Shown here: positions 24,897-48,022 of the stretch, piece after piece | How the letters are laid out: each line of letters begins with the position of its first letter | Numbering within the stretch: position 1 is the stretch's first letter | From: Nitrospirota bacterium | GTDB taxonomy: Bacteria; Nitrospirota; UBA9217 | Length of the DNA: 64,000 bases | Assembly: GCA_963751455.1 (NCBI GenBank) | Contig: CAVVUN010000015.1 | Span: 1,344,001 to 1,408,000, forward strand | Direction of reading: 5' to 3' | The notes under the pieces: generated by a model | What the model was told of the DNA's origin: nothing | The model's input: the letters and a program-made list of their open reading frames with translations, nothing else | Databases searched by the model: none | Position numbers and translations under genes: made by a program

Positions 24897-26594
24897 ATGA
24901 GAAAAAGTAACGCAACATACCTGGCTGTTGCACTGCTCATCCTCATAGCGTTTGTCCTGATCGTCCGCCTCTGGGCAAGCGGACGGGCCGCGGCCGTTGT
25001 CGGGCCGACGCAAATACGGCTTGGGGAAAACGGCATTATTTATCTGCTGAGCGACAGAAAGCTCTATCTGCATGACAAAGACGGAGATCTCGTTGATATA
25101 ATACCGATTGCAAAATTCGGGATCAGCGGTCTCGTCATCGGGGATTTCTGGGTCTACAAAAACGGAGATATTCTCCTGCGGCGGCAGGTTGACCGGGCGC
25201 TGACGGTTTCAGGAGAAGCTGAAATGTTTGCAAGGACCGGGGCGGGCGTAAATGACAGACTCGGCACCGGTGAAAGCATCCTGCAGCGCTGCAGTACGAC
25301 AACGTTTGCGTGCGAAACATTCGGCAAGGGCCGCGACGTCTTCGACAGGATCACGACGTACCGTCTCGCCGTGGACGAGGAAAAAGGATTGACCTATCTG
25401 TCCGACACCATCGGCCATGAGTTGCTGATGCTTGACGATCACGGCATTGTAGCTGCAAAGTCCGGCGCTTCCTTTCAATTCCCGAACCAGATACTCCTGG
25501 AAGAGGGCGGCCTCCTCTATGTCGCGGACACCAACAACCACAGGATAGCAGCGGTAAAGACGAATAGAAATGCGTTCGGCGCGCTCGAGAGAGAGTTCAA
25601 GATAGTGCATCCCCGGATTCCTGGCAAGATGACGTGGCCCATGGCAATTGCCCATACGCCTGACAGGAAATGGTGGGTCATTAATGCAGATGACAATATG
25701 GGAGACGGGATCGTGATGATCCACAACGAGAAGGGAAGCTTCGAGAAAATCGTTTCCCTGCCGCCAAACGCGGACCCGCTCTGTCTTGCTGTTGTCGGCG
25801 ACCGTATTTTGCTTACGGACCGGACGCTCATGAGAGTCTACCAGGCGGACCTGAACGGCCAGTTACTCGATGATTTCGGTTCCCTGCTTTTAAAGCTCGA
25901 TTTATCCGAGCTTCGAAGAAAGCAGCGGCTCTACGATTCGCTGGCGCAAATTTCTATGTGGCTGCTGCTCGTTCTTCTGGTGTCCTCATTTTTCGTGGCG
26001 CGACAGGCGCGGCTTGAGCAGGCTACGCAGCCACAGAGACAGCCGGATCAGCGGCTGGCAGCGGGTGCATTGTCCAGCGGGGCACTACTCAACAAACAAT
26101 ATGACTATCACAGCATCCTTGGACTGCATAGAATACAATTCGTTGTTCTCACGATTATGCTGCTCACTGCGTTTGCATTCTTCATCATGATCAGCAGGGG
26201 TATGACTGTTGTCCATAAACAATTCATGCCTCTTGTATTAGTTGCGCACGTCGGGTCCTCGCTCGCAACGTATTATAAATTAAAACACTCCTCCGTAGAA
26301 TTAACCGAACAGGGCATCACCTGTAATGGATGGAAGAAAAAAATCACTTCGCCCTGGATGGCTGTAAAAAAAATCAATGTGTATGGCAGGAACGTGAAAA
26401 TAACGACTGATTACGGCAATTTTTCGATAGGCATGGTTGAGCCTGCGGATAGTCCAGCGCGGGGCTGGCTGGACCTGCTCAAACCAGAGCGTGCGAAGTT
26501 TCTGAAACAGCTGGTCAATGAGATCCAGAAACGGGCACCCGGCGCAAAGGTAACCATTTCACTATTAGTGAGGCGGCAGTGGAATCGGCTTTAA
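24897..26594 (+). CDS. NHL-repeat membrane protein
   Basis: FPNQI..LYVADTNNHRI repeats; N-terminal anchor and C-terminal TM helices. Confidence 0.8.
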   Translation: MRKSNATYLAVALLILIAFVLIVRLWASGRAAAVVGPTQIRLGENGIIYLLSDRKLYLHDKDGDLVDIIPIAKFGISGLVIGDFWVYKNGDILLRRQVDRALTVSGEAEMFARTGAGVNDRLGTGESILQRCSTTTFACETFGKGRDVFDRITTYRLAVDEEKGLTYLSDTIGHELLMLDDHGIVAAKSGASFQFPNQILLEEGGLLYVADTNNHRIAAVKTNRNAFGALEREFKIVHPRIPGKMTWPMAIAHTPDRKWWVINADDNMGDGIVMIHNEKGSFEKIVSLPPNADPLCLAVVGDRILLTDRTLMRVYQADLNGQLLDDFGSLLLKLDLSELRRKQRLYDSLAQISMWLLLVLLVSSFFVARQARLEQATQPQRQPDQRLAAGALSSGALLNKQYDYHSILGLHRIQFVVLTIMLLTAFAFFIMISRGMTVVHKQFMPLVLVAHVGSSLATYYKLKHSSVELTEQGITCNGWKKKITSPWMAVKKINVYGRNVKITTDYGNFSIGMVEPADSPARGWLDLLKPERAKFLKQLVNEIQKRAPGAKVTISLLVRRQWNRL

Positions 26595-26825: not shown

Positions 26826-27029
26826 ATTCATAAAGTAAACCTTCCTCAAGTTACCCGCTGGTCCAGCGAATCCCAGCATGCAGATCTGGCCAGTTCGAAG
26901 CTACGATTGCGAATTAGCCAATACAGATCCTTCTTCGCATTTTTGCGTGGAATGTACTTTTTTAACGGCGTGAAACGCATTAAGTCTCAATCGACCAATT
27001 GTAATAAAACTGAATACATGGAGTGTGCC

Positions 27030-30000
27030 ATGCGTGTAAAGACCTTCTTTCGTTTTTTAAGAATCGTCTCGGCAGTGGTATTATTTTTCTTCGTTTGGAC
27101 TTTCAGCGAAATCTGGCAAGCAGTGGCTTGGGCGGCTGCGCCGGCGCAGGTTAAGACGACGCAGGCCCGGAGCGAAAAGCCGAAACCGGCATCCGCTGCG
27201 GAGCAATTCGAGGCAGCGCTTGAGGGGCTGATGGAACGAATCGGCAAAACCGGCGAAAAGGCCGCGCGCAATGAAGACATCACCGAAGATCTCGGACAGC
27301 TCAAAACCGTTAAAGCCGCTATCGAAGCGCTCGATGGGGAATTGAGAAAAGAATTTTCAAACACGGAAAAGCGCCTCATTGATTCAAAGCTCCCAAAAGA
27401 AATACTCGCCAGACATGCTGCATTCGTGAAAAATTGTGAGAACAATCTTTCCCAGCTTAAAACCGAAATAGATGACCTCGACAAGGCAAAGACTAAGGCA
27501 GACCGCAAGTCGAAGATCGAAAAGGTTCGTCTGCACCTCGAAAAAACCAAAGCCCCGTCGCGTCATCAAAAACTCGACCCCGAAAATTTACCGTTCAGGG
27601 CAAGGAAGGCCGCAAAAGCCCGCGAACCGCGACTTAAAAAGGAAGACTTCAAAGAGTTCGGGCCGCAGAAGCGCACGAATTTGGCCGCAGATGAACACAG
27701 ATTGACACAGATTGCTTCGGGGATGCAAGATGCAGGATTTAGGATGCATGATAAAAATATTTCATATAGATCCGTTCAAAAGCCTCTCCTCCTCGCCTAT
27801 AACGCAGAGACCGCCACCGACGCTCCTCTGTCTTTTTATCAAAAACCCGAAACTCGAAACGCTGAACTCGAACCGTTTTCTACTATCGCTTTCTCCGAAC
27901 CAATTTTGAATATTGAATCCGGCACTTTGAATTTGGCGCAAGCCGTAGGCGCGCCAACTGCAGACGATCTCGCGCAAACGCCTGATGTTCAGTTTACTTC
28001 TGAAATCCGTGCGAAGGCTCAGGAACTCGGATACAATCCGGTCAAAATCTACGAGTATGTCAGGAACAACATTGAATATGCCCCTCTATACGGGTCCATC
28101 CAGGGAGCAGACCAGTGCCTTCAGTCGAAGATTTGCAATGATTTCGATACGGCGTCCATTCTAATCGCCCTTCTTCGAGTATCGGGCATATCAGCGAGAT
28201 ATGTATATGGAACAGTCGATATCCCTATGGAACAGGCAATGAACTGGGTTGGCGGCGTGACCGACCCCAAGATGGTCGGAACGATCCTCGCTACAAATGG
28301 GGTTCCCGTCACGCTCCTTAAGACCAGCTCTGGTGTCTACAAATACGTGAGGATGGAGCGTGTCCTCGTCAGCGCATTCATCGACTATATCCCAAGCCGC
28401 GGGGCGGTCCACAAACAGGGTGATACATGGATTCCGCTCGATCCGAGCTTCAAACAATACGACTTCAAACATGGTATGGATTTGTATACCGCAATGGGGA
28501 TTAATGGCGAGCAATATCTTCAGAGTTACATTACGGACACATCGTCTCTTACAATCCCAACAGAATTACAAGCATCATTTCCAGCATATACCATAAGCCC
28601 GTATCAATATTACAGCAAAAGGCTGTTCAATTACCTCGACACTAATTTTCCTTCCGCAACTTATCAGGACGTATTTGGTGCAGACACGATTGAGGCTTCA
28701 AGAGCAATAATCAAGAAAGAATATCCGTATCTTATGGGTACTCTGCCCTACAGCGTAGTTACGCAAGGCGCATCATTCGCATTCATCCCGGACAGTCTTA
28801 GACACAAAGTAAATTTCCTGATTGGAGACACGACCTTATCTGACGCAAGCTTAACCTACACGGCAAGCTTGCCCGAAATCGCCGGTAAAAGAATAACCCT
28901 CTCATCTGTTCCTGCGACGGCATCAGATGAGTCACTCGTGAACCAGTATGGTACAATGCTGAACGTTCCGCCATATCTTCTCTCTGTGAAAATGGCGTTG
29001 AAAATCAATGGGATTGCCGTGGCGACTGGTAGCCCTGCTGGTCTCGGCAAGGTGCAGACATTTAACATGAGTTTCACCATCCCCAACATAGGAACGGAAA
29101 TCGTTATAAACACGGTAACTGCGGGAGATTACTCAGCAATTCCAATTATCTCCTGCAACGTTCCCTTTACTTTGGTAGGGGATAAAATGGAAACTCTTAT
29201 CAACAACATCGGAAGCTCTGATCTCGATGATCTGTTAGGCCAGATGCTTTACAACGTCGGAGTATCGTACTTCCATCATCTTAATTTTGAGGAAGAGCTG
29301 TATGCCAAGAACTTCAAGATGATCATAACCAAGGGTCTCTCAGAGGCTATCGTAACCTCTCACGCTGAAACCGATTCGCTTTGGGGTGTGCCATATAAAA
29401 TCTCAGAAGGCGGAATAGGGATCGATGTAGGCAAGAATGAATACTTCCCCTTCCCTTACGACGGCAGCAGCAATCGGGCACGCGATTTCATGATAGTATC
29501 AGGCCTCGGCAGCTCAGCATGGGAAGATAGAGTGCTTCAAGCTTTCTATGATGTACCGTCCGTCTCGGCAGCACGACTTCTCAGATATGCCAGTCAGCAA
29601 GGCGTGCTGATTTACACAATTGATGGAACTAACATTAGCGATATTCTGCCGCAACTTCTGGTTTCTTCACAAGTACTAGACGATATTAAAAATGCTGTGA
29701 ATGCCAGCAAAAAAGTAATCATCTCGAAAACCGGTGTCCAATATGAGGGGATGGACAGTATAGGCTATATTGTGCTCGATCCGGGAACAGGAGCGGCTGG
29801 TTATATGATTAGCGGTGGGCTCGCAGGGGGCATGAGCAGCCAGCCAGATGATATGTCGGTAAGAGATATTACTCAATATTTGCGTGATGGATCAGCACTC
29901 AGAACAATTTATGGAAGATCGATGGTTGTTATGTATGCTTTAGCACAATTAGGCACTCCGTATCGTACCGGGTTTGAAGACCCCGGTCCCATGGGTGGGG

Positions 30001-30380
30001 CAGATCCAGACAAGGGGTTTGATTGCTCGGGGCTCATATATTATTTATTCACGACTGTTTACAATAAACATATTTTTGGACCTGAGAGATTATGGACAGT
30101 AGACCGTCAACATAGATATTTATTGGAAAAGAAAATGACTCATCTTTATGAGGAAAAACTCGACGGCGATATACTGTGGAGCGATAACTACGGCCATACT
30201 GGAATATATTATGGCATTCATGCACTTCTGCCAGGGGAAACTCTTGTTACAGACTCTGTAATTCACGCAAATCGCGGCAAATGGTTTAGCGCGGTTATTA
30301 TTACATCTACAAATAACGCAGCCTTTACGGGTGCGCCAAGTGGCAGTCGTATGCCTGATATAGGAAGACCAGTTCCTTAA
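27030..30380 (+). CDS. Transglutaminase-like carrier 1 with C-terminal NlpC/P60-like domain (candidate polymorphic toxin)
   Basis: Signal peptide; ALLRVSGISARYVYG, WIPLDPS; junction GAAGYMISGGLAGG; C-terminal LGTPY, GFDCSGL, GDIL, GHTGIY, VIHA. Confidence 0.8.
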   Translation: MRVKTFFRFLRIVSAVVLFFFVWTFSEIWQAVAWAAAPAQVKTTQARSEKPKPASAAEQFEAALEGLMERIGKTGEKAARNEDITEDLGQLKTVKAAIEALDGELRKEFSNTEKRLIDSKLPKEILARHAAFVKNCENNLSQLKTEIDDLDKAKTKADRKSKIEKVRLHLEKTKAPSRHQKLDPENLPFRARKAAKAREPRLKKEDFKEFGPQKRTNLAADEHRLTQIASGMQDAGFRMHDKNISYRSVQKPLLLAYNAETATDAPLSFYQKPETRNAELEPFSTIAFSEPILNIESGTLNLAQAVGAPTADDLAQTPDVQFTSEIRAKAQELGYNPVKIYEYVRNNIEYAPLYGSIQGADQCLQSKICNDFDTASILIALLRVSGISARYVYGTVDIPMEQAMNWVGGVTDPKMVGTILATNGVPVTLLKTSSGVYKYVRMERVLVSAFIDYIPSRGAVHKQGDTWIPLDPSFKQYDFKHGMDLYTAMGINGEQYLQSYITDTSSLTIPTELQASFPAYTISPYQYYSKRLFNYLDTNFPSATYQDVFGADTIEASRAIIKKEYPYLMGTLPYSVVTQGASFAFIPDSLRHKVNFLIGDTTLSDASLTYTASLPEIAGKRITLSSVPATASDESLVNQYGTMLNVPPYLLSVKMALKINGIAVATGSPAGLGKVQTFNMSFTIPNIGTEIVINTVTAGDYSAIPIISCNVPFTLVGDKMETLINNIGSSDLDDLLGQMLYNVGVSYFHHLNFEEELYAKNFKMIITKGLSEAIVTSHAETDSLWGVPYKISEGGIGIDVGKNEYFPFPYDGSSNRARDFMIVSGLGSSAWEDRVLQAFYDVPSVSAARLLRYASQQGVLIYTIDGTNISDILPQLLVSSQVLDDIKNAVNASKKVIISKTGVQYEGMDSIGYIVLDPGTGAAGYMISGGLAGGMSSQPDDMSVRDITQYLRDGSALRTIYGRSMVVMYALAQLGTPYRTGFEDPGPMGGADPDKGFDCSGLIYYLFTTVYNKHIFGPERLWTVDRQHRYLLEKKMTHLYEEKLDGDILWSDNYGHTGIYYGIHALLPGETLVTDSVIHANRGKWFSAVIITSTNNAAFTGAPSGSRMPDIGRPVP

Positions 30381-30397
30381 TCAAAGGAGAAATTATT

Positions 30398-31384
30398 ATG
30401 GTTATCAGAATTATTATTAGCGTGCTGCTAATGTTGGCATGCGCAACATCTTCAAGGGCAGAAGAGTTTTCCGTCAGAAAGGTCATACTATCTCGATTTA
30501 AAGTAAAAAACGACGTGATAGTAGATTTGCCAAAGATGTCACCCTATTGGCCTGAGGTAAATAGAGGTATTCTCGCCATAGATAATCAGGGGCGGATATA
30601 TATTTTGAATTTATGGAATAATGAAATTCTCGTTTTTAACGATCAGGGGAAGTTGCGAGATAAAATTAGTTTGCCAATGAGATTGTATAGATTTGAACAT
30701 ATGAATGGAGAAATAGAAGTCTCTGGTGATGGTAAACGATTATTTGTGGAAGGATATGACCAATCCAATAAAATGAATCAAATTCTTTTAGATCAAAATG
30801 GCAAAATTGTTAGGCAATTTATTAGTGATAATGAAATCATTTGGAACTTTCCTGATGCTCGCCTTTGTAATAAGCCTTATTATCTCTTCAAAAAAGGTGG
30901 TCTTCTTTATGATGAGAATTTTTATAAATTAAGCGGTCAGTATCAAGGATTTGTCGACTCAGAAGGAAAATATACATTTGATTTCGAGAAACGGCTGCTG
31001 ATTAAGCTTCGACAGGATGGTGGGAGAATATGGGAGAAACAGTTTAACACTAATATTGAAATCGTCGGTCTTGATGCAAACAGTTTCCTTTATATTGTTA
31101 CACGTCTAAAAAATGACGATCCTGATTATTTATATAAACTCAATTCAAAGGGTAAAATTCTGGCAAAGGTTCCCATTCCTAAACCATTTCCCCTTCTGAC
31201 ACAAGAAGAAAAGGAAGACTTTTATGCGCTGATATCTGAGGAGCCGTTTGCCTCTTTCAAGCTTACTTGCAATGGCGACGTATATTTGATATTTCGTCTT
31301 AACAAATTGCCTGAGCCTGCATTCAAACGTTGGCTAAAGGGCGGAGAATATTTTATTTATAAATTCGAGACACTTGGTAAATAG
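30398..31384 (+). CDS. Secreted beta-propeller-like protein (candidate immunity 1)
   Basis: Signal peptide; LAIDNQGRIYI NHL-like repeat; AT-rich; 17 nt after carrier 1. Confidence 0.65.
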   Translation: MVIRIIISVLLMLACATSSRAEEFSVRKVILSRFKVKNDVIVDLPKMSPYWPEVNRGILAIDNQGRIYILNLWNNEILVFNDQGKLRDKISLPMRLYRFEHMNGEIEVSGDGKRLFVEGYDQSNKMNQILLDQNGKIVRQFISDNEIIWNFPDARLCNKPYYLFKKGGLLYDENFYKLSGQYQGFVDSEGKYTFDFEKRLLIKLRQDGGRIWEKQFNTNIEIVGLDANSFLYIVTRLKNDDPDYLYKLNSKGKILAKVPIPKPFPLLTQEEKEDFYALISEEPFASFKLTCNGDVYLIFRLNKLPEPAFKRWLKGGEYFIYKFETLGK

Positions 31385-31642: not shown

Positions 31643-34393
31643 ATGCGGAAAAGATCACTAAGCTGTATCGTTTTCATCATCTTCTCTATCGTTAGTTCTT
31701 CAGTCTTCGCCCAATCTCCGCAAATATCGACCGGCCTTACCTGGCTCTACTCTGCTCAAACATCGAGCGGTAACTGGCCGGAAGTGGCGACCACCGATTA
31801 TTACTCCACTACCACAGCGCTTGATGCGGTTTATGCACTCGATTCCTCAAGCCCGGCATACTCTGCGGGCTTCCAGTGGATGACCGGCCAGATCTTTTCT
31901 CCGGTGGATTATCTCTCACGCCGGGTCATTGCACTCACGCGTTCAGGGCAGGATATATCAACCGAATTATCCGGACTTATTCTTTATCACAATTCCGATG
32001 GCGGTTTTGGAGGTGCTGACGGTTACCCCAACAGTTACACCCTCGACACCGCCCTCGCCCTGCAAGCCCTCAAGGCCGCCAATTATTCCGATACGACCGT
32101 TATCGGTCAGTCATTGAACTATCTCACTAAAAATCAAAACTCAGACGGTGGGTGGGGATTCAGGTCCGCGACCGACGCTAGCCCTGCTGATGATAGCAAT
32201 GCGTACGTAACTGCAATCGTTCTCCGTACGCTTGCATTATACGATTCAACATTCAAAATGACAGATTCAATATTAAGGGCATCGGAGTACCTCATTGCCA
32301 AACAAAATGCTGACGGAGGTTTTGGATCTAGTCCTTCCAACATCTATGAAACTGCTCTCTCGATCTTGTCATTAATCGAAAGCGGAAAAGGAAGTAGTTC
32401 GATCATTCAGAACGGGATTCAATATTTGACATCGACGCAAGCATCCGACGGTAGCTGGGGTCAGGACCCATATTATACTGCTCTTGCGCTTCAAGCGCTT
32501 GCTGCTGCAAGGCCGAATCTTACTATTTCCTCAATTTCACTTTCGAATCCGATGCCGAAAGAGAATGTAGAAACAACCATTTCTGCTACGATAAAGAACG
32601 CCGGGTATGATGACGCCTCTAACATTATCGTTCGATTCTTTCTTGGCGACCCGGCAAACGGCGGCATTCAAGTCGGGTCTGATCAAATTATTCCATCTCT
32701 TACCCCGAACTCCTCAACTCCTGTCTCCGTAACTGCTTCATTCACCGGTATTGGCGGCAAGACGATATTCGTTGTCGTTGATCCGGACGGTGTTATCTCT
32801 GAAACATCTGAATCAGACAACAAATCTTCCGCCCGTGTTTGGATTGCAACCGGACCTGATCTTGCTGTTTATTCCGAAGACCTGAAACCATCCACTTATG
32901 TTCCTGTATCAGGAACCGCGTTTACTCTCGGATATAAAGTCCGAAACCTTGGTGAAAGTGCGACAGGAGCATTCACTGTCAGTCTCTACGAAGGCGATCC
33001 TTCGCAATCCGGAGTTCTTTTGCAGACCGTCAATATCTCGGGTCTTGCAGGAACGGAAGTACGCTCAGGATCAATAGGTGTTACCCTTACCGGGAACGGT
33101 TCTCACACGCTTTACCTGACAGCTGACCCCGGAACCCTGATCCCTGAATTATCTGAGACGAACAACACCGGCTCGGTCACTGTCCAGGTAGGAGGCACGC
33201 AGCAGTTTGCGGACCTTATGGTAGGGATGATACAGATTACCCCAGCCCGGCCGACTACTGGTGAGATGGTGCAGATAACCGCGCCGATCCGGAACAAAGG
33301 GTCTGAAGCGGCGTCGTTCTTTACTGTAGAGATATTCGACGGCCTCCCAGATGCCGGAGGCACGCTGATTAACGCGCAAACGATTTCACTTGCGTCTGGC
33401 GCTGAACAGATCATTACCGCGAATTGGGCAATCGCGTCAGGTATTCACGAGCTCTATCTGATCGTGGACCGCTCCAACCAGATCAGCGAGACAAACGAAA
33501 CGAACAATCAAACAACGCTGCGCGTCATGCCTGACATGGTCGACATTTCGATCTCCGCAACAGATTTGACATTTACTCCTGAGCATCCGGTGAACGGGGA
33601 TATTGTGCTTTTGTCAGCCGAACTGCATAATACCGGGATCAAGGACACTGGTGCATTCAACTTTGCACTCTATGACGGAGATCCGGCAGCAGGAGGCACA
33701 CTTTTACAGACCTTCTCCATCGCGAACCTTGCCGGCGACGCAAGCACGACCCTAACCTACAATTTTACCGCTGTTCCCTGGACCTACCGTTTCTATGCAA
33801 TAGCTGATACTGAAAACATTGTCACCGAACTCTACGAGGCAAATAACCAGGCAATCAGCTCGTTAAAGATTAAAGCGCCCGGCGAAATCCTTGGTCCTGA
33901 TAACGTCCCAACAGCGCCGGACCTTACAAGCATGCCCTTCAGCAGCCCGACTTTGACCATCTCCGGTAACGTGAAAACAGCATTCGAAAACACCGGCGAC
34001 ACAAAGATAGCCGATTCCTCCGGCATTATCATCTTCGAGGACAAAAACAACGACGGCAGGTACACGGCAGGAGTGGATACGCTCTTAGGAACAGGCACAT
34101 ATACAATCGCAAAATTCAATGACGATCCCATGTCCGAGTTCGTTCTGCTTATTACCCAGGTTTATTACCATGCACTATATATGAAAGGAAGCGTTTATTT
34201 GATCGAACACGACGGAAAAATAAAATGGGGACCGGTGTATCTGAACGATCTTGCGCCCTATGCCCTGTCCGCGTCATACGACAGTGAGACCATCAAGACC
34301 GGCCTCGATGAAGCCGGTGAGCCGATCATTAACATCCGCATAAACGACAAAGATGTAATTCTGGACAGAGACGGATATCTGAAAAATAAATAG
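31643..34393 (+). CDS. Secreted prenyltransferase-like repeat / CARDB protein (short paralog 1)
   Basis: QNSDGGWG repeats; four CARDB-type repeats ending E..E.NN/DN. Confidence 0.85.
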   Translation: MRKRSLSCIVFIIFSIVSSSVFAQSPQISTGLTWLYSAQTSSGNWPEVATTDYYSTTTALDAVYALDSSSPAYSAGFQWMTGQIFSPVDYLSRRVIALTRSGQDISTELSGLILYHNSDGGFGGADGYPNSYTLDTALALQALKAANYSDTTVIGQSLNYLTKNQNSDGGWGFRSATDASPADDSNAYVTAIVLRTLALYDSTFKMTDSILRASEYLIAKQNADGGFGSSPSNIYETALSILSLIESGKGSSSIIQNGIQYLTSTQASDGSWGQDPYYTALALQALAAARPNLTISSISLSNPMPKENVETTISATIKNAGYDDASNIIVRFFLGDPANGGIQVGSDQIIPSLTPNSSTPVSVTASFTGIGGKTIFVVVDPDGVISETSESDNKSSARVWIATGPDLAVYSEDLKPSTYVPVSGTAFTLGYKVRNLGESATGAFTVSLYEGDPSQSGVLLQTVNISGLAGTEVRSGSIGVTLTGNGSHTLYLTADPGTLIPELSETNNTGSVTVQVGGTQQFADLMVGMIQITPARPTTGEMVQITAPIRNKGSEAASFFTVEIFDGLPDAGGTLINAQTISLASGAEQIITANWAIASGIHELYLIVDRSNQISETNETNNQTTLRVMPDMVDISISATDLTFTPEHPVNGDIVLLSAELHNTGIKDTGAFNFALYDGDPAAGGTLLQTFSIANLAGDASTTLTYNFTAVPWTYRFYAIADTENIVTELYEANNQAISSLKIKAPGEILGPDNVPTAPDLTSMPFSSPTLTISGNVKTAFENTGDTKIADSSGIIIFEDKNNDGRYTAGVDTLLGTGTYTIAKFNDDPMSEFVLLITQVYYHALYMKGSVYLIEHDGKIKWGPVYLNDLAPYALSASYDSETIKTGLDEAGEPIINIRINDKDVILDRDGYLKNK

Positions 34394-34436: not shown

Positions 34437-34889
34437 ATGCCGGAAATCTATCTGCTGAACGCGGAACACCTGATCCAGGATTACCTGGACACCGCGCATG
34501 CTATCGGGCGAGAACCGAACTACACGCATTTTCATACCAGGCACCGCCATTGTCTGAAAGTCCTCGTTCGCGTGTTCGGCAAGCCCGGCTGGAGCAATCT
34601 CCAAAAAGCCGCAGCCGGAAAAAAGTGGAGAGCGGGCCTCCGCAAGCATGGACTGCGCACCGGCGCAGTGGCAGCAGGACCGAGGAGGACATTGAACCCG
34701 GTAAGAACAGAAGGAGAGATACTCGAAGAGATATGGGCGATCTACCGCGCACTTATAGCGGCAAATCAGGCCGGAAAAAAGAAAAAATCATCGAAAGAAC
34801 AGAGAAATGTATGGAAACTGAGTAACAGGCTCAACGACTTGTTCTATGAAACCGGACGCGTTATCTCACTGAAGGAAGCATTTAAATAG
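34437..34889 (+). CDS. Hypothetical protein
   Basis: 150-aa ORF with RBS gaggg; basic. Confidence 0.55.
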   Translation: MPEIYLLNAEHLIQDYLDTAHAIGREPNYTHFHTRHRHCLKVLVRVFGKPGWSNLQKAAAGKKWRAGLRKHGLRTGAVAAGPRRTLNPVRTEGEILEEIWAIYRALIAANQAGKKKKSSKEQRNVWKLSNRLNDLFYETGRVISLKEAFK

Positions 34890-35740: not shown

Positions 35741-38700
35741 ATGCGCGTCTATACTTTCGGCTTCCGAATTACGGTCTGGGCTGTACTCTCGCTATTTTTA
35801 TGGTGCTATGGGCCTTTGTTCCAGATACAAATGGCCTGGGCCGCTTCGCCGGAGCCGCGTAAGACGCCGCAAGCGCAGAACGAAAAGCCGAAACCGGCAT
35901 CGGCATCGGAACGATTTCAGGCCGCGCTTGAGGATATCCGCGAGTCAGCCGGTAAAGCAGGTGACAGGGTCGCGAAAAACGAGGACACCTCATCGGAACT
36001 CGAGACTATAAAGACAAAGCGGACGGAACTCGATTCTCTTCGGGCTGAACTCAAAAAAGAATTCGATAGTACAGGCAAACGTCTCAGGGACGGGAAGCTT
36101 CCAAGCGAAATCATATCCCGCCACGAAAAATTCGTCGAGAATTTTGAACGCAATTACAAGGAACTGCAGGATGCGCTCAGTGCAGTAGAGCAGGCGAAAA
36201 AGAAAGAAGAGAAGCAGCGAGCATACCAAAAAGCAAAAGCATTCCTGGAAAAGACCAGGCCGCAGCGGAAAAATATTCCTCTCGATCCGAGTCGCTTGCC
36301 GCATCGCGCTATCAAGGCAAAACCAAAAGCCCCGCGATTGACCGCCGAAGAGTATCAGCGCGATTTTCCGAAGCAAAAGTTGCGGAGCAAACAGAAGGTT
36401 GCGGAAACCCGCTTATTGCCAGATCTCTTGGCAAGCAAACAACAACCTAAACCGGTTCTCTTGGCTTTCAATGAAACCGCCAGCGATATTACTTTTTCAG
36501 TCGGCTCTGACGCAATCACCCTGCAGCCCGATCTTTCCGTCACTGCATTCGAACCGCTGCTGCTCGCGCAAGCCGCGTCTAACCTTCCGACGCCGGAGGA
36601 TCTCGCCTCCACCCCCGAGATAAATTCCGATTCGCCGCTCATTCGCGCCAAGGCAGAGGAACTGGGCTGTGCGCCTGCACGCCTGTACACTTGGACCAGG
36701 AACACCATAGAATTCGTACCCACCTACGGCTCAATTCAAGGGGCCGAGATGTGCCTTCAGACAAAGCAATGCAATTCCATCGATACAAATTCTTTATTGG
36801 CCGCGTTAATGCGTTCATGCAATATCCCCGCGCGCCTGAATATCGGAACAATCGAGGTCCCGATTGAGAAACTGATGAATTGGGCGGGTGGATTTAGTGA
36901 CCCGACCGCAGCTTTGAATTATCTTGCCAGCGGCGGAATACCCGTCACCGGGTTGCGGTCGGGCGGCAAAATATACGCGGCGAGACTCGAAACCGCATGG
37001 CTCCGCGTTTTCGTCGACTATATCCCGTCACGAGGGGCTGTACATAAAGAAGGCGACACTTTCATCCCCCTTGACGCCAGTTTTAAACAATATACCTACA
37101 AAACAGGTCTCGATGTTCAGCAAATAACAGGCTTTGACCCTTCCGCTTTTGCGAATTCCTTAATAAACAGCGGTGTCACCGACCCTGCCACTGGGTCGAT
37201 CACAGGAATAAACGCTACCTTCATTCAAACGCAGATTGACGCAGCCAAAACTTTACTCGAAACACATATAGAAACATTACAAGATCCTACCGTTGGCGAT
37301 ATCATAGGCGCCAAAAATATTATACAGGAAGATCTTGAGCTTCTTCCCGCGAGCCTTCCCTATAAGACCATTCTAACAGGCTCGGAATTCGCTGACATTC
37401 CCGATTCTCTTCGGTATAAAGTCGGGATATCGATATACGATCCACAGACAATGGCACAATCGATGAGTGTCACTTATTCAACCGCGTACTTGGCGGGCAA
37501 ACGGATAACTTTAGCGTACATGCCTGCCACACAGACAGATGCACAGACTTTAGAAACTTATGGATATTACAACACCAAGCCATATCTCGTAAATCTCAAG
37601 CCTGTTCTCAAGATAGATGGTATCACGGTCAACAGCGGTGGCAATACAGGCATGGGTATGATGCAGGACCTGACTGTTACGTTTATACCTCCCAATGGTT
37701 CAACGGATATGGTTACTCACAAGATACCTGCATCAACATACGCCTCGCTCGGGCTCGACTTGCAAAGAGTATCTAAAAGTCTTCTTGACAACAGGAATGC
37801 GCAGCTCAGCGCCGCTGTAAACCTGCTCGGACAGCAAGACGTTGCCGTGGATGATATCCTCGGTGAGACTCTTAATCTGCACAATCTTGGTTATTTTTCT
37901 CAGGTAGAGACCACAAACCGAATGCTCGCGACAGGCAAGGTAGCATACTCAAAACAACCTGCCGAGATGCTCACAACCTTGGCGCCGACCATTTCGTATC
38001 TCTACGGAGTCCCGTACAGCATCGGCTCTATCGGAACCAATATAGATGTTAAACGCTATCCCATGAATGTGATCTCGCTACAGGGTAACATGAATGACGA
38101 AATAGCTTTTATGACCGCGTCCGGAACAAGCGGGTCTGCATATGAACATACGATTATTGAAGAACTTCATCAAGATGCGCAGGGCGTCTCTGCGGTAAAG
38201 ATTATTAGCATCGCAAATCAACAGGGCATCCCAATATATACAATAGATTCCAGTAACAGCGCGACGGTACTGCCAAGACTGCGGATATCCTCGGAAACCA
38301 TGTCAAATATTCAGAATGCGATTGCCGCTGGAATGCGGGTCATTATTCCTGAACAATCAATTCAATATTTTGATTGGCACGGTGAGGGGTTCATTGTCAC
38401 TGATCCCTCCAGTGGTGCTGCTGCATATATGCTTTCAGGCGGATTGGCAGGGGGTGGAACTTCTTCACAGCTTGACCAATTGAGCAGTTTTTTTAGTGAC
38501 ATGCTGAAAAACTTTGCTTTCGATTTCACTAAAGCGCTAATCACTTTTCTTTTCAAGGCAGGCGCCGGAGTAGCTTCAAAGTTGGCAAGCATAGCCGGGT
38601 ATATTACTATGGGTCTTTCCGCAATTAAGACATATAATGATATGTTTGACGCTACAGGAGGAGATTCATTGAAGGCCAAATCTGCAGCTGTTCTTGATCT

Positions 38701-38920
38701 CGCTATGAGTGTGATGGCCTCGATATACATTGGGGCTATAATGTTTGCAGCAACAGGATTTGGGGCAGCTGTTGCTGGAATTCTCCTTGTCGCTATAATT
38801 GCAACCCTAATAGAAATGCTTTTCTTGGCATTGATCGAGTATGCAAGCGTCCCAAGTATATCTCGAAAAAAGTACTTTGCTATGATAACGTCACCGTGGA
38901 GGTATTGTTATGCTGCGTAA
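35741..38920 (+). CDS. Transglutaminase-like carrier 2 with hydrophobic C-terminal domain
   Basis: Paralogous to carrier 1 up to GAAAYMLSGGLAGG, then Ala/Gly/Ile-rich hydrophobic helices. Confidence 0.8.
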   Translation: MRVYTFGFRITVWAVLSLFLWCYGPLFQIQMAWAASPEPRKTPQAQNEKPKPASASERFQAALEDIRESAGKAGDRVAKNEDTSSELETIKTKRTELDSLRAELKKEFDSTGKRLRDGKLPSEIISRHEKFVENFERNYKELQDALSAVEQAKKKEEKQRAYQKAKAFLEKTRPQRKNIPLDPSRLPHRAIKAKPKAPRLTAEEYQRDFPKQKLRSKQKVAETRLLPDLLASKQQPKPVLLAFNETASDITFSVGSDAITLQPDLSVTAFEPLLLAQAASNLPTPEDLASTPEINSDSPLIRAKAEELGCAPARLYTWTRNTIEFVPTYGSIQGAEMCLQTKQCNSIDTNSLLAALMRSCNIPARLNIGTIEVPIEKLMNWAGGFSDPTAALNYLASGGIPVTGLRSGGKIYAARLETAWLRVFVDYIPSRGAVHKEGDTFIPLDASFKQYTYKTGLDVQQITGFDPSAFANSLINSGVTDPATGSITGINATFIQTQIDAAKTLLETHIETLQDPTVGDIIGAKNIIQEDLELLPASLPYKTILTGSEFADIPDSLRYKVGISIYDPQTMAQSMSVTYSTAYLAGKRITLAYMPATQTDAQTLETYGYYNTKPYLVNLKPVLKIDGITVNSGGNTGMGMMQDLTVTFIPPNGSTDMVTHKIPASTYASLGLDLQRVSKSLLDNRNAQLSAAVNLLGQQDVAVDDILGETLNLHNLGYFSQVETTNRMLATGKVAYSKQPAEMLTTLAPTISYLYGVPYSIGSIGTNIDVKRYPMNVISLQGNMNDEIAFMTASGTSGSAYEHTIIEELHQDAQGVSAVKIISIANQQGIPIYTIDSSNSATVLPRLRISSETMSNIQNAIAAGMRVIIPEQSIQYFDWHGEGFIVTDPSSGAAAYMLSGGLAGGGTSSQLDQLSSFFSDMLKNFAFDFTKALITFLFKAGAGVASKLASIAGYITMGLSAIKTYNDMFDATGGDSLKAKSAAVLDLAMSVMASIYIGAIMFAATGFGAAVAGILLVAIIATLIEMLFLALIEYASVPSISRKKYFAMITSPWRYCYAA

Positions 38921-39803
38921 TAAAATTTACATTAGGCCTTCTTTTCTTGTAGCCTTATGGTATGTTTTGTTTTTTGTGTCGATAATGATAATGACATTGC
39001 CAATAACTTTTTTTAAGAATATCTATCGTTTTCATCGGCATCCTGGAACATATCTCATGGTAGACGCTGTCAGCTCGGTATTGATCCTCTTCATCGGTTG
39101 GATACTTTGGCGAAAGGCTACTTTTGCCAAAAAAGATCTTGTTGAACTAGCATATGACCTGGGGGTTCGTTTCATAAAAAAAAGAACGAAAATAAGTCTG
39201 CGTTATTATGGAAAATATCGTTTTGCCTATGGATGGTTAGATGACATCCATGTTACTGCACTTATCCTCTCGCCGTTCTTCTCGTATTTTCCAGGAGAAG
39301 GATCAACTGGTTTAGCTTTCTCAAAGCAGCAGGACTCGTCTGTTGCTTCGGAATCTGCGATCAGAAACCGAACAAGATGGGAAAAATTTCAGGCGTACAT
39401 GTTTAGCGGCCGAAAGGGTGGACCGAGCGGACAGGAAAGTCATGCGGAACTATTTGCCCTCATCAAGGGTCCATATAATATTGATGCTGTTATTGAGTTA
39501 GAGGAAGGTAAAGGCAAAATCCCTGCGACAGGCTGCCCGGAGATTGATGAAGCTCTCAAAAAGCATCTTTCGGGTGCGCCTTATTTTAATGCCAGACTGA
39601 TATTCAATAAGGACTGTTTGAGAATGGCTATTATTGGTGGATCATGGGAGGGAAAACGGTTCGGTGACAAGATTCAAAAGGGTTTTGAAATGTTCAAGCA
39701 GATGCACGATGCGCTCAAGACAAAATATCCTGCCGAGCCCTGGGATAAATATCAAGTCAAATGGAATAGATCGGAAGAAACTTTTTATTTGGCAGGTAAG
39801 TGA
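38910..39803 (+). CDS. Membrane protein (candidate immunity 2)
   Basis: Overlaps the carrier 2 stop; two N-terminal TM helices; AT-rich. Confidence 0.65.
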   Translation: MLRNKIYIRPSFLVALWYVLFFVSIMIMTLPITFFKNIYRFHRHPGTYLMVDAVSSVLILFIGWILWRKATFAKKDLVELAYDLGVRFIKKRTKISLRYYGKYRFAYGWLDDIHVTALILSPFFSYFPGEGSTGLAFSKQQDSSVASESAIRNRTRWEKFQAYMFSGRKGGPSGQESHAELFALIKGPYNIDAVIELEEGKGKIPATGCPEIDEALKKHLSGAPYFNARLIFNKDCLRMAIIGGSWEGKRFGDKIQKGFEMFKQMHDALKTKYPAEPWDKYQVKWNRSEETFYLAGK

Positions 39804-39871: not shown

Positions 39872-42646
39872 ATGAGACGAGCATTATTGATTGCTTTAAT
39901 ACTTTTCTGCTTTGTGACTGTGAATAAAGCAATTGCACAGAGTCAGACTGTAACAAATGGACTCAGCTACCTATCAGCAACGCAGAATCCTGACGGATCG
40001 TGGAGTGGCCCTGCTACCTCTGCTGTTTACAACACTTTTACATCACTTGAGGCTCTATTGGCTTTCAATAAAATTGATGCCAATTACGGTGTAGGCCTGC
40101 AATGGTGCCAATCGTATCCTGCCGTCAATGTCGATTATCTATCGAACAGAATCATGTTGCTGTCCAGAAGCAATCTCAGCTATACGGATGATTTAAATAC
40201 TTTGCTTTCCCTCTGCAACACGGACACCGGTGGATGGGGGTTGAAATCTTATTCAAACGACCTTCTCGATACTGCTCTTGCTCTCCAGGCGCTTAAGGCT
40301 GCAAACTATTCCGACTATTCGATACTGGCTCAAGCAATCAACTTTCTCACCTCGACTCAAAATTCAGATGGGGGTTGGGGCAGTACTGTTGGCGGTGAAA
40401 GTACTAATTATGTCACGGCACTGGTGCTGAAAGCATTGAGTGAATACAGCCGAGTCATTATCATGCAGGAAACAATCAGCAAGGCCTCTTCATATCTTCT
40501 CTCCAAACAAAATACTGATGGTGGATTTGGCAACTCGCCTTCCACCGTCTACGATACGGCATTATCTGTTATCTCTTTAATAGACAGTGGCAGCAACAGC
40601 ACGCAGTCAATTGTGAACGGGATAAATTATCTCGCATCATATCAGTCTCCGGACGGTAGCTGGGATCAGGACCCGTATTATACGGCGCTTGCTCTTCAGG
40701 CATTGGCTGCTGCGCGACCAAATCTTACTGTTAGCAATATCTCTCTCTCCCAACCCATGCCCAGGGAAGGGGAGGAGACGATAATTACGGCGACAATAAA
40801 GAATGCCGGTTTTGAAGACACTTCCAATGTAGTGGTGCGTTTCTATATTGGTGACCCTTCGGCGGGAGGGGTTCAGATCGGTGTTGATCAAATAATTCCG
40901 TCTTTATCTGTTAATTCAACAGCGCAGGTCTCAGTAAATTCATCTTTCTCAGGAACAGGCGGCAAGACAATATTCGTTGTTGTTGATCCGGACAACAGCA
41001 TCTCCGAAACATCTGAATCCGACAATAAATCCTCCGCCCGTATTTGGGTGGCGACGGGGCCTGATCTGGCGGTTTATTCCGAAGACCTGAAACCGTCCAC
41101 GTATGTCCCGGTATCGGGAACTCCGTTCACTCTTGGATATAAGATCAGAAATTTGGGTGAGTCGGGTACAGGTGCATTTTCTGTAGCGCTCTATGATGGT
41201 GCGCCGGATGCAGGCGGTACTCTTCTTCAAACCGTCAATATTTCCGGTCTTGCAGGGACGGAAGTACGAAGCGGGAGTGTCGGCGTTACATTGACCGGCA
41301 ACGGTTCACACACCCTATATCTTGTCGCAGATAAGGATAATGCGGTCACTGAAATATCCAAAACCAACAATACCGGCTCAGTTACCGTCCAGGTAGGAGG
41401 TACGCAGAAGTTTGCGGACCTTATGGTAGGGATGATACAGATTACCCCAGCCCGGCCGACTACTGGTGAGATGGTGCAGATAACCGCGCCGATCCGGAAC
41501 AAAGGGTCTGAAGCGGCGTCGTTCTTTACTGTAGAGATATTCGACGGCCTCCCAGATGCCGGAGGCACGCTGATTAACGCGCAAACGATTTCACTTGCGT
41601 CTGGCGCTGAACAGATCATTACCGCGAATTGGGCAATCGCGTCAGGTATTCACGATCTCTATCTGATCGTTGACCGCTCCAACCAGATCAACGAGACAAA
41701 CGAAACGAACAATCAAACAACGCTGCGCGTCATGCCTGACATGGTCGACCTTTTGATCTCTGCAACAGATTTGACATTCACGCCTGAGCATCCGGTGAAC
41801 GGGGATATTGTGCTTTTGTCAGCCGAACTGCATAATACCGGGATCAAGGACACTGGTGCATTCAACTTTGCACTCTATGACGGAGATCCGGCAGCAGGAG
41901 GCACACTTTTAAAGACCTTCTCCATCGCGAACATTGCCGGTGATGCAAGCACGACCGTAACCTACAATCTTACCGCTGTTCCCTGGACCTACCGGTTCTA
42001 TGCCATTGCCGACACGGAAAACGTCGTCACCGAACTTTACGAGGCAAACAACCTCGCAATCCGCTCCCTCAAGATAAAAGCCCCCGGGGAAATCCTCGGC
42101 CCGGACCTTGTCCCAATTGATATCGATCTTACAGAAGCAACCACCAACTCCCAGACCCTTGCACTATCCGGCAAAGCAAAGGTCACGTTCCAGAATAAAG
42201 GAAATGACAAAGTCATCATATTCGACGATAAAGACAACGATAATCGTTACACGGCAGAAACGGACACATTACTCGGCACGGGCGCTATTGCAATAAAGAA
42301 TCTCGATGATGATCAATATTCCGAGATCGTTCTCCTCATTACCCATGTACAATCCCAGCCTGTATATATGGAAGGAAGCGTCTATCTGCTGGAACACGAC
42401 GGCAACGTCAAATGGGGGCCGGTATATCTCAACAATCTTGCGCCCGATGCGCTGTCCGCGTCGTATAATGGTGCGAAGGTCAAGACCGACCTCGATGAAG
42501 CCGGTGAGCCGCTCATCATCATCAACATAAACGATAAAGACGTAATTCTGGACAGGGACGGATATTTGTGGCAGCGGTCCGAACAAAGAAGATCGCCGCT
42601 CAACCAGATAAACAAGTCAAACGTGACGAACAATACCTCACGATGA
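39872..42646 (+). CDS. Secreted prenyltransferase-like repeat / CARDB protein (short paralog 2)
   Basis: Same architecture as 31643-34393 with a near-identical central block. Confidence 0.85.
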   Translation: MRRALLIALILFCFVTVNKAIAQSQTVTNGLSYLSATQNPDGSWSGPATSAVYNTFTSLEALLAFNKIDANYGVGLQWCQSYPAVNVDYLSNRIMLLSRSNLSYTDDLNTLLSLCNTDTGGWGLKSYSNDLLDTALALQALKAANYSDYSILAQAINFLTSTQNSDGGWGSTVGGESTNYVTALVLKALSEYSRVIIMQETISKASSYLLSKQNTDGGFGNSPSTVYDTALSVISLIDSGSNSTQSIVNGINYLASYQSPDGSWDQDPYYTALALQALAAARPNLTVSNISLSQPMPREGEETIITATIKNAGFEDTSNVVVRFYIGDPSAGGVQIGVDQIIPSLSVNSTAQVSVNSSFSGTGGKTIFVVVDPDNSISETSESDNKSSARIWVATGPDLAVYSEDLKPSTYVPVSGTPFTLGYKIRNLGESGTGAFSVALYDGAPDAGGTLLQTVNISGLAGTEVRSGSVGVTLTGNGSHTLYLVADKDNAVTEISKTNNTGSVTVQVGGTQKFADLMVGMIQITPARPTTGEMVQITAPIRNKGSEAASFFTVEIFDGLPDAGGTLINAQTISLASGAEQIITANWAIASGIHDLYLIVDRSNQINETNETNNQTTLRVMPDMVDLLISATDLTFTPEHPVNGDIVLLSAELHNTGIKDTGAFNFALYDGDPAAGGTLLKTFSIANIAGDASTTVTYNLTAVPWTYRFYAIADTENVVTELYEANNLAIRSLKIKAPGEILGPDLVPIDIDLTEATTNSQTLALSGKAKVTFQNKGNDKVIIFDDKDNDNRYTAETDTLLGTGAIAIKNLDDDQYSEIVLLITHVQSQPVYMEGSVYLLEHDGNVKWGPVYLNNLAPDALSASYNGAKVKTDLDEAGEPLIIININDKDVILDRDGYLWQRSEQRRSPLNQINKSNVTNNTSR

Positions 42647-44130
42647 AAAAGAAAACAAAGCCATCACTAGCCAAAGCGAACAGGCCGCTCGCCCGAGAGT
42701 GGCACCCGACAAAAAACACGCCGCTCACGCCCAGGGACGTAACGCCGGGCTCCAGCAAGAAAGTATGGTGGCTGTGCAAAAAAGGCCATGAATGGGAAAC
42801 CTACGTAAAATGCCGAAGTAAAGGCTATGGATGTCCCTATTGTTCAGGACGATATCCAACAGACAGTAACAACCTTGAAGCTGTAAATCCCCAGCTTGCA
42901 AAGCAGTGGCACCCGATAAAAAACGCTCCACTGACACCAAGGGATGTAAAATCCTGTTCTAGAAAAAAGGTCTGGTGGAAATGCAGCAAAGGCCATGAGT
43001 GGGAGGCCGTTATCTCCGACAGAGGTCGGAACGGCTGTCCTTACTGTTCAGGGCGCCGGGTCTCTAAAGATAATTGCCTTCAGGTCGTCAAGCCACGGCT
43101 TGCCCGGGAATGGCATCCGGTAAAAAATGCTCCCCTAACGCCGAAGACCGTAACGACCAGTTATTTCAGGAAGGTCTGGTGGATATGCCGAAAAGGCCAT
43201 GAGTGGGAAATGACCATATACAACAGGAGTGAAGGCCAGGGCTGTCCTTATTGCTCAGGGCGTAGGGTATGTAAAGAGAATTGCCTTCAAACGATAAACC
43301 CGCTGCTCGCCCGCGAATGGCATCCGACCCGGAACATACCATTGACGCCAAGGGATGTAACACACGGGTCAGCAAAAAAAGTATGGTGGATGTGCGAGAA
43401 ACACCACGAATGGGAAGCAGAAATAGCGAGCAGAAACAGCGGAGTCGGCTGTCCTTATTGCTCAGGCCGAGCGGCGGCCGAAGACAACTGCCTTCAGACC
43501 ATAAATCCGAAACTTGCCTGCGAGTGGCATCCAACCAGGAACAGGCCGTTGACGCCAAAGAACGTAACCGCTTTTTCCAATCGACAAGTGTGGTGGAAGT
43601 GCCCTAAAGGTCATCAATGGGAGGCTGTGATAGGTGAGAGAAGTAGAAGCCGGGCCGAGTGTCCCTACTGTTCAAGGCAGCGGGCGAGCAAAGAATATTG
43701 TCTTCAGAGCATAAATCCCGGACTTGCGCGGGAATGGCATACAACGAAGAACGGTTTGTTAACTCCGAACGATGTAACTCCTTTCTCAGCCAAGAAAGTA
43801 TGGTGGAAGTGCAGAAGGGGTCATGAATGGAAAGCCGTTATTAACAATAGAAACCGGGAAAGCCTCGGATGCCCTTACTGCTCGGGGTACCGGGCTACGA
43901 AAGAAACCTGTTTACAGACGGTTAGCCCGCGGCTCGCCAAAGAGTGGCACCCAACAAAGAACGCCGCGTTGACTCCGAAAGAAATTGCTCCTTTTTCTTC
44001 GCGACTGGTGTGGTGGAAGTGCAGGAAGGGACACGAAGCGCAGGAACGAGTCATCGATAGATATAAACGAGGAGGCTGCCCTGTATGTACACTGAAGGCC
44101 AAAGTGCCCTGGTTGTTTGAGGCAACGTAG
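42643..44130 (+). CDS. Zinc-ribbon (treble-clef, DUF4379-like) repeat protein, 7 repeats
   Basis: Seven LAxEWHPxKN...VWWxCxxGHEW...GCPYC units; ATG overlaps the upstream TGA. Confidence 0.9.
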   Translation: MKKKTKPSLAKANRPLAREWHPTKNTPLTPRDVTPGSSKKVWWLCKKGHEWETYVKCRSKGYGCPYCSGRYPTDSNNLEAVNPQLAKQWHPIKNAPLTPRDVKSCSRKKVWWKCSKGHEWEAVISDRGRNGCPYCSGRRVSKDNCLQVVKPRLAREWHPVKNAPLTPKTVTTSYFRKVWWICRKGHEWEMTIYNRSEGQGCPYCSGRRVCKENCLQTINPLLAREWHPTRNIPLTPRDVTHGSAKKVWWMCEKHHEWEAEIASRNSGVGCPYCSGRAAAEDNCLQTINPKLACEWHPTRNRPLTPKNVTAFSNRQVWWKCPKGHQWEAVIGERSRSRAECPYCSRQRASKEYCLQSINPGLAREWHTTKNGLLTPNDVTPFSAKKVWWKCRRGHEWKAVINNRNRESLGCPYCSGYRATKETCLQTVSPRLAKEWHPTKNAALTPKEIAPFSSRLVWWKCRKGHEAQERVIDRYKRGGCPVCTLKAKVPWLFEAT

Positions 44131-47500: not shown

Positions 47501-48022
47501 ATTGTCGATATGAGTTATGATACGGTAGATTGCTCACATTTAGTGAGAATTGCATATTGGGCGGCAGGTATTTGCTTAGATGACGGAGTAGGTAGCGATT
47601 GTACCAGAAATAACCTCGTAAGAAAACATCATGTTCCTGGAACAGGTGGAGCTTCATATTTTTTCAATTTGGCCGACCATATAAAATTTAATAATAGCAT
47701 TAGACAGTCCAATGACCCTTTAATTGGCGATATGGTTTTCTTTAGATATGGTACAAGAATAGGTCATGTAGGGATTGTGATTTCTGTCCCTAATGACAGA
47801 GGCACGATACAGATAATTGATTCGACTGGCAGTCGAGGCGTGGATTATAGAAAGATGAATATTAATCTCATTAATTGTGACGAAAACTGGCCACCATTAA
47901 CGAGAAGAACTTCAACTGACCCGCCTGCGCCAACTTGTTGTACATCCTGTACCGCTGGAAATCTATTTTCTGGATTTGGTACAGTCCGGGATGTTCCCTG
48001 TGATGATATCTCTCATCAGTGA
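44549..48022 (+). CDS. Transglutaminase-like carrier 3 with NlpC/P60-like C-terminus
   Basis: Paralogous core; junction GSGAYRISGGLGG; VDCSHLV, GDMVFF, GHVGIV. Confidence 0.8.
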   Translation: MCVKTFYRFLRPITYFVLFFFCWSYMELFMIPTAIAAQQKTEAGTQTIEDSRRLQSVEGQKPEERFERLLDDIRETVGKAGDKAAKGENASLELEMIKSRKAEIANLRDELNKEFDATAKRLRDGKLPSVIISRHEKFVESFERNYKELQDALNSVQQAKTKNEKQQAYQKARAFLESVRPKSRHQKLDPENMPFKARKAAKWREPRLKKEEFKEFGTQKNKNTLRTALIGHKDAQKAQEVSGGDIYSELSLSSNVPVGATLNSRLKASPILLAYNDIASDAPFTLPRPIVGEGGGEGAIPQIAFSDPILNIESGMLNLAQAVDAPAAADLAENGIDVQFADAIKVKAQELGYSPVKIYEWVRNNIEYIPTYGSIQGADMCLQTKQCNDFDTASLLIALLRVSGIPARYVYGTVEISIDKIKNWTGGFSDSTAALTLMASGGIPVAAGMSGGAITKARFEHTWVETYIPYGNYRGSMRDDSLRTWIPMDGSYKEFTYTNGFDVTGAVPFNQDEYLSQVQSQNAVHYYQSKIQAYLDVNMPDKSIIDVKGYREIKQEKYPFLPSTLSYKVMTLGGKFSSIPANMQATATFTLSNPSTGSNISYMASLPELAGKRITVSYIPATPDDEALIAKYGGFLYDVPAYMLNLRAILRVEGVIKLTSDVTTLGSEQGLTMQFSQPNGNSETVNKMLIAGAYYAVGLDTQGINENVLGKRNYQLNTNVLTQTAGTLGNDDLIGEYLYIRAITYFLANNKLYKGAAKLYNTAMMRAISEGITSTPLKVSYVFSIPKTATPSGVEIDVAMDRIVAVAKDGNVNKEKAFMNISGLVSSYDEHDVFEKLDEFPSVSAVRALQIAATNGISIYTINSANIAQVLPTIQVDQEVRKDIQNAVNAGKEVTISQTNVRIGDWLGVGYIVKDPISGSGAYRISGGLGGALSTAVFVGVAIVALYKGPYGWIKDQLDPQTRRNIVTAAELEVGNMIIGITEQIVDMSYDTVDCSHLVRIAYWAAGICLDDGVGSDCTRNNLVRKHHVPGTGGASYFFNLADHIKFNNSIRQSNDPLIGDMVFFRYGTRIGHVGIVISVPNDRGTIQIIDSTGSRGVDYRKMNINLINCDENWPPLTRRTSTDPPAPTCCTSCTAGNLFSGFGTVRDVPCDDISHQ

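Follow-up and report, generated by a model that had tools for sequence, protein, structure and literature searches.

The 64,000-nucleotide stretch of the Nitrospirota bacterium genome GCA_963751455.1 analysed here (contig CAVVUN010000015.1, positions 1,344,001 to 1,408,000; hereafter the window) carries on its plus strand, between 27030 and 60899, three large carrier proteins, an orphan module and a toroid/CARDB protein in three copies. These genes probably form a Sec-exported system of polymorphic toxins, with the NlpC/P60 domains at the C-termini of carriers (the tips) as predicted cell-wall cutters and the NHL-type beta-propellers encoded behind them as likely immunity proteins, one of at least four partner families. 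Features by which polymorphic toxins are recognized are present: one body with variable tips, a downstream gene specific to the tip type, and an orphan tip cassette. A preliminary description of this DNA had proposed that NHL propellers are a matched class of periplasmic immunity proteins for NlpC/P60 enzymes; it is likely that the propellers are immunity proteins, but not that they are a uniquely matched class.

Carriers and their NlpC/P60 tips

Carrier 1 (27030–30380, in an open frame of 26907–30380 whose likely start is the ATG at 27030) consists of a signal peptide, a transglutaminase-like domain without the catalytic Cys, a conserved body reaching to a GGLxG motif, and the tip (29829–30380). 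The window carriers show 38–40% identity across ~950 residues and diverge past the GGLxG motif. Each has a signal-like N-terminus (signal peptides were called by eye from hydrophobic N-termini and sequence) and a PF01841 transglutaminase-like domain in Pfam, which an unannotated body of ~450 residues joins directly to the tip. The column that we take to be that of the catalytic Cys, assigned by the motif G-x-C-x-D-x-A, is D, A or S in all 53 aligned relatives, while the His is kept in 50 and the Asp in all 53. No RHS family was found in the three window carriers by the Pfam scan; RHS is present in a long-tailed paralog (L003) elsewhere in the same genome. Carrier 3 (44549–48022) ends in an NlpC/P60-CHAP tip (47342–48022), and the orphan module (49104–50171) comprises the last ~115 residues of the carrier body and an NlpC/P60 tip of its own, its DNA being 71% identical to carrier 3 along 499 bp. 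Carrier 2 (35741–38920) has the same body and a tip of hydrophobic helices that is not NlpC/P60; its membrane-anchored, non-propeller partner (38910–39803) serves as an internal control.

The six motifs that the preliminary description had named in the tips are all in place: DCSGL at 30021 and GHTGIY at 30192 in carrier 1 (Cys 30024, His 30195), DCSHL at 47528 and GHVGIV at 47762 in carrier 3 (Cys 47531, His 47765), and QCSGL at 49656 and THVGIV at 49944 in the orphan (Cys 49659, His 49947). By alignment, the third triad residue of tip 1 is probably the His at 30264. The assignment of these C-termini to NlpC/P60 in the preliminary description was borne out as well. In the profile search that it had proposed, the isolated tips all match NLPC_P60 above the curated cut-off of 23 bits (carrier 1, E 5.3e-6 and 26.8 bits; carrier 3, 2.1e-9 and 37.8; orphan, 1.6e-5 and 25.2), and a CHAP match was reported for carrier 3 (E 8.1e-8). 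Tip 1, the one tip covered by structure prediction, was modelled with a papain-like fold at a predicted local distance difference test score (pLDDT) of 88; the model matches the C40 endopeptidases Acd24020, SagA, LytE, MepS and RipA, best 7cfl, 6b8c, 8i2d and 8xud, with template modelling scores (TM) of about 0.5–0.6 by query length. Moreover, the Cys, the His and an Asp between them are invariant in 33 of 33 aligned NlpC tips, and the third catalytic position is H in 21 and D in 6 of these, with H, D and Q in window tips 1, 3 and the orphan. All three tips are therefore papain-like domains of the NlpC/P60 kind whose catalytic residues are intact, and they are predicted to cut peptidoglycan stem peptides. 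As for the parallel with Tae/Tai pairs drawn in the preliminary description, the tips resemble C40 DL-endopeptidases. The 39 matches of the tip profile among PDB sequences are all of the NlpC/P60 kind with no Tae-labelled protein among them, and the structure matches listed for tip 1 are likewise C40-type proteins, with no Tae1–4 effector among those listed; kinship with a Tae family outside these lists is possible.

A carrier-body search gave 905 proteins at E 1e-20. The body is present in 42 of 401 genomes of the host's phylum, and the named relatives are mainly from Nitrospirota and deltaproteobacteria, with some from beta- and gammaproteobacteria. No description of the family was found in the literature searched, although the supplements of Zhang et al. 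(2012; PMC3482391) may list such carriers. Parsing of the fetched loci yielded 250 junction matches, representing 191 distinct modules, 187 of which have a tip of at least 60 residues and 176 of these also a downstream open reading frame (ORF). The Pfam scan took in all 187 tips and the 115 longest of 178 partners, and clustering took all 178 partners. NlpC/P60 tips account for 35 of the 187, the remaining 152 being of other kinds; the 187 tips fall into 29 multi-member clusters plus singletons, and partner clusters mostly follow tip clusters. Other Pfam matches of tips, weak or single, are to SLT, M15 peptidase, phospholipase A2, colicin pore and Ntox16. Among short non-NlpC tips, a crude scan found a hydrophobic segment in 120 of 137, and partners with at least two segments behind 93 of 137. 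One six-member tip cluster (L047, L042, L073, L048, L071, L051) has mostly a single membrane-anchored partner family behind it, and one of its members shows a weak caspase-like match (Raptor_N, Pfam). The C-termini of two long-tailed carriers, L001 4173–11658 and L002 74–4085 (G000:C4), match phosphodiesterase/nucleotide pyrophosphatase, and behind these carriers lie three related signal-peptide proteins.

Partner genes behind the tips

The preliminary description had placed an NHL-like signal-peptide protein behind each of the three NlpC/P60 tips, which is correct for carriers 1 and 3 but not for the orphan (2 of 3). Partner 3 (48088–49044) is a clear NHL/DUF5128 propeller (PF01436, E 6e-8 in Pfam). 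Partner 1 (30398–31384) gives a weak DUF5128 match only (E 0.01); its predicted model is a propeller of ~310 residues (pLDDT 88), for which NHL domains come top both in Foldseek (TM 0.51) and in VIA (Z 11.4, root-mean-square deviation 5.5, 246 aligned), in the latter tied with WD40 propellers. The two partners align over 228 columns with 19% identity (HHalign 95%). Both begin with a signal peptide and both are AT-rich, with guanine-cytosine (GC) contents of 0.36 for partner 1 and 0.33 for partner 3 against 0.51 for the genome. The orphan is followed by a frameshifted, truncated remnant (50231–50515) of about one blade: a 94-codon ORF with a signal-like start runs through NHL profile positions 9–44, then 41–65 in another frame, and then meets a stop, so that about 65 of 295 profile positions are spanned in two frames of the assembled sequence. 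A 158-residue signal-peptide protein of no known family (50621–51097) comes after this broken partner and is a possible further partner; its atlas leads, which include staphostatins (0.83), are all below 0.9. Staphostatins are cysteine protease inhibitors. Just upstream of carrier 1 lies a membrane-anchored NHL-repeat protein (24897–26594) dissimilar to the partners.

The matched class was not supported by a survey of what follows the tip in the 34 NlpC modules that have a partner. An NHL-type gene comes first in 13 (including the broken remnant and one near-duplicate pair), and three other families fill 19 slots, namely DUF4424-type in 9, TolB-like in 8 and a fourth family in 2, with the other 2 belonging elsewhere. 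Among 142 modules with other tips, the first partner is NHL-type in none and TolB-like in 1. Taken together, the four soluble signal-peptide families occupy 32 of 34 NlpC slots versus 1 of 142 others. The NHL-type class emerged from blind clustering, and weak propeller matches were also seen in Pfam behind SLT-like and M15-cluster tips. It is evident that NHL-type first partners are confined to NlpC tips, while NlpC tips are not confined to NHL-type partners. An N-terminal hydrophobic segment was found in 31 of 33 NlpC first partners (crude scan or by eye), and two long hydrophobic segments in the broken stub only (crude scan). The DUF4424 proteins, some with YARHG, sit directly behind NlpC/P60 tips in their 9 modules, up to three of them stacked (L184); examples are L069:2314–3390, L076:2797–3849, L044:8373–9656 and L212:3978–5099, which gives DUF4424 a candidate function.

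The partner class switches 12 times on a 33-tip tree, from which a truncated tip and a partnerless one were omitted, whereas shuffled labels switch 16.9 times on average and as rarely in 0 of 200 shuffles; partner labels are thus more clustered on the tip tree than shuffled ones. The NHL label alone changes 7 times, at least 5 of these changes being forced by well-supported branches. The nearest relatives of carrier 1's tip (57–58% identical) carry DUF4424-type partners with YARHG, and partner 1 shares about 50% identity with partners of tips that are farther from tip 1.

Partner genes are also found stacked and without a toxin. Further genes of the same four families follow the first partner in 11 of 34 NlpC modules, and 3 TolB-first modules have an NHL gene second. 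In a reverse search scoring the best five or fewer candidates per genome, the NHL-partner profile gave at least 8 matches in 6 of 401 genomes, 4 behind NlpC tips and 4 without a tip; in 401 genomes of a second phylum, searched to the same depth, it matched the seed genome only. Of the tip-free matches, one is closely related to partner 1 and occurs in G190, where it has housekeeping genes on one side and two partners of another tip family on the other. A second one, in G173 (contig C5), is directly followed by an attC-like hairpin and has an integron integrase (TIGR02249, 364 bits, cut-off 265) at a distance of 2.6 kb. Another G173 copy is preceded by an attC-like hairpin and followed by a group II intron gene, and the fourth match is a fragment at a contig end (G188). 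A strict attC scan found no site; a looser scan found four hairpins and missed one, visible by eye, immediately upstream of the G173:C5 gene. At these loci we also recorded three toxin-free candidate immunity genes in a row beside a probable toxin-antitoxin pair, judged by eye (L241, G190:C4, 3665–7385), attC-like cassettes with an integron integrase, one of them with the NHL-type partner gene (L243, G173:C5, 2811–7842), and a second cassette array with the group II intron gene beside the NHL-type copy (L242, G173:C3, 6922–10654). As far as the available texts go, the toxin-free copies have the appearance of orphan immunity genes (PMC3482391; 10.1101/471110), and mobile cargo of another function would look similar. 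The immunity role proposed in the preliminary description is consistent with this genomic behaviour of the propellers (directly downstream, low in GC, hydrophobic at the N-terminus, stacked, toxin-free), even though "matched class" was not supported.

Proposed mechanism and competing explanations

In the mechanism that we propose, the signal peptide would carry the carrier through the producer's periplasm, exposing the producer's own wall to the tip; the tip would be delivered to a neighbouring cell and cut peptidoglycan stem peptides there, and an NHL-type propeller would block the tip enzyme directly in the producer's periplasm. Because the carrier crosses this compartment, the producer of an active C40 tip would have to inhibit it there in cis, besides being protected against sister cells. 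Several observations weigh against such a toxin-immunity reading. The orphan tip has no intact propeller partner in the window, and no linked secretion apparatus was found in any of 20 extended regions. The NHL propeller is a very common fold; the NHL-partner profile gave 47,155 matches among representative proteins at E 0.001, mainly through one blade and mostly to generic NHL repeats. NlpC carriers come close to a single lineage, since the carrier tree requires no more than 3 changes for them and one origin is possible, and this tree leaves 1 independent pair for the contrast between 13/34 and 0/142. Since the NlpC carriers are so closely related, this contrast is not independent evidence, and Fisher tests on the partner classes (p 6e-11 and lower) were likewise discarded as evidence because the modules are kin. 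Finally, tip-partner similarity gives a Mantel value of 0.70, which is no better than the 0.78 for carrier-partner similarity and therefore does not separate co-evolution from linkage.

Three other explanations have to be considered. It is highly improbable that NHL propellers are a dedicated one-to-one immunity class for NlpC/P60 tips with the other slot genes as passengers. The restriction of NHL-type first partners to NlpC tips, the tracking of tip clades by NHL subfamilies (the Mantel value of 0.70) and the NHL genes in second place in the 3 TolB-first modules would all fit, but the first partner is another one in 21 of 34 NlpC modules, and no NHL gene occurs in the available sequence of 18 of 34 (some loci end early). 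The 12 partner-class changes on the tip tree speak against it too, as do the DUF4424-type partners of carrier 1's nearest tips, with kin of partner 1 following distant ones. The tip could instead be a self wall-remodelling enzyme that opens peptidoglycan for assembly of the carrier and the giant toroid/CARDB protein, with the propeller as regulator or adaptor, as in the pairs NlpI-MepS and IseA-LytE (IseA and NlpI are not known to be NHL propellers). In line with this, all 25 NlpC modules whose flank reaches 3 kb or more have a toroid/CARDB gene within 6 kb downstream (71 of 107 among all modules with enough flank), housekeeping autolysins, some in complex with NlpI or IseA, head the structural matches, and the NlpC carriers are almost a single lineage. 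We nevertheless judge it unlikely, as it leaves unexplained the 152 of 187 tips that are not NlpC, the short ones being mostly hydrophobic helices with membrane partners, and as orphan modules, stacked partners and toxin-free copies in integron cassettes suit conflict systems.

Also unlikely is the view that the tips are toxins and the propellers are not inhibitors, acting as chaperones or as aids to delivery or receptor binding, or being AT-rich cargo at a recombination-prone site. Partners are swapped independently of the tip, mobile cassettes hold them among unrelated genes, and the fold is common, all of which this view would accommodate. However, the content of the slot tracks tip type (32/34 NlpC versus 1/142 other in the four soluble families), and a free-standing chaperone would be useless in a toxin-free cassette. 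We thus favour a Sec-exported toxin system in which the propellers are one of several kinds of immunity protein. A more far-reaching version seems possible rather than probable: RHS-free carriers with an inactive transglutaminase domain, together with giant toroid/CARDB scaffolds, may constitute an undescribed Sec-exported family that delivers C40 tips, and the four unrelated periplasmic folds may be interchangeable, cross-protective inhibitors accumulated in arrays and integron cassettes. Should the partners prove to be inhibitors, a first testable function would be at hand for full NHL propellers and for DUF4424 proteins, and the NlpC/P60 toxin class, for which the 2012 survey lists no immunity protein, would have four candidates. 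Near-identical enzymes with unrelated partner folds offer a ready test of one-to-one versus class-wide immunity to wall hydrolases, and cell-wall research could use new protein inhibitors of C40 endopeptidases as tools.

Neighbouring genes and comparison with known systems

Toroid/CARDB relatives lie downstream of most carriers. In the window, two shortened alpha/alpha-toroid plus CARDB copies (31643–34393 and 39872–42646) precede a full-length giant protein with toroid, CARDB, FG-GAP and Ig-like parts (51228–60899), the copies being 76–78% identical in DNA and showing no thioester motif by eye; the giant protein may serve the system as its surface scaffold. The break-off points of shortened copies at several loci of this genome hold DUF4379 zinc-finger repeat proteins and an ORF with HNH-associated repeats, possibly mobile elements (window 42568–44130 and 34437–34889; L001 14998–16236; L004 16610–18741). 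Right after the giant gene, a short ORF (60978–61304) shows weak pseudopilin-like Pfam matches (E 0.009–0.07). The features expected of delivery by a type VI secretion system (T6SS) were not found: carriers start signal-like, and the sheath gene VipB has no match in this 100%-complete genome. The genome has five secretins, and a broken copy of the system on its contig C1 is next to a type II-like operon, which was also matched in four other loci. In L004 (G000:C1) and L244, an operon with PilM/N/O-like, secretin and pseudopilin genes comes directly after a broken carrier and a giant protein interrupted by an insertion. A type II-like export link as a general rule was rejected, being present in 0 of the 20 extended regions.

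Zhang et al. (2012; PMC3482391) describe RHS toxins with transglutaminase domains that lack catalytic residues, and Tox-NLPC/P60 is listed there as a toxin. In the available text, it has no listed immunity protein, the authors state that immunity proteins had not been seen to include beta-propellers, and CARDB does not occur. The carriers described here share with the toxins described in that text the signal peptide, the inactive transglutaminase-like domain, variable tips, an immunity slot, orphan cassettes and polyimmunity arrays; unlike those toxins, in which RHS repeats follow the domain, the window carriers have a body that runs straight to the tip. Neither a full NHL-type inhibitor of a wall hydrolase, an RHS-free carrier or a four-family slot, nor a link of DUF4424 to immunity, was found in the literature searched, in which few subscription papers were covered.

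A propeller that inhibits a wall hydrolase is already known. Tsi1 (PMC3391265) is a partial three-sheet propeller that acts against the amidase Tse1, and two further propeller-like inhibitors of wall hydrolases, X-TfiXAC2610 and PliI, have its topology according to the available part of PMC10933484, where cis protection of the producer is also documented for a Xanthomonas pair. As far as these texts go, the pairs described here resemble Tse1/Tsi1 of the Pseudomonas aeruginosa T6SS in joining a papain-like peptidoglycan hydrolase with a propeller-like partner, which is periplasmic there. They differ in that partner 1 is modelled as a larger, NHL-type propeller of ~310 residues, and in that Tse1 is a small T6SS cargo whereas the tips end signal-peptide carriers of 1,100 residues. 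Tse1 and Tsi1 are absent among the structure matches listed for tip 1 and partner 1, but may be kin. In fold and in the Cys-His-polar triad, the tips are like the C40 DL-endopeptidases of the LytE-IseA and MepS-NlpI complexes (PDB 8i2e, 8xud), although LytE and MepS are housekeeping autolysins in fixed contexts. Similarly, the toxin-free copies recall rAID-1, a Bacteroidales XerD-like system of T6SS immunity genes (bioRxiv 10.1101/471110). According to the available text, both have AT-rich, immunity-like genes without a toxin near a tyrosine recombinase with integron-like repeats, but the copies described here are single NHL-type genes surrounded by unrelated cassettes, and the enzyme encoded nearby is a true integron integrase (TIGR02249).

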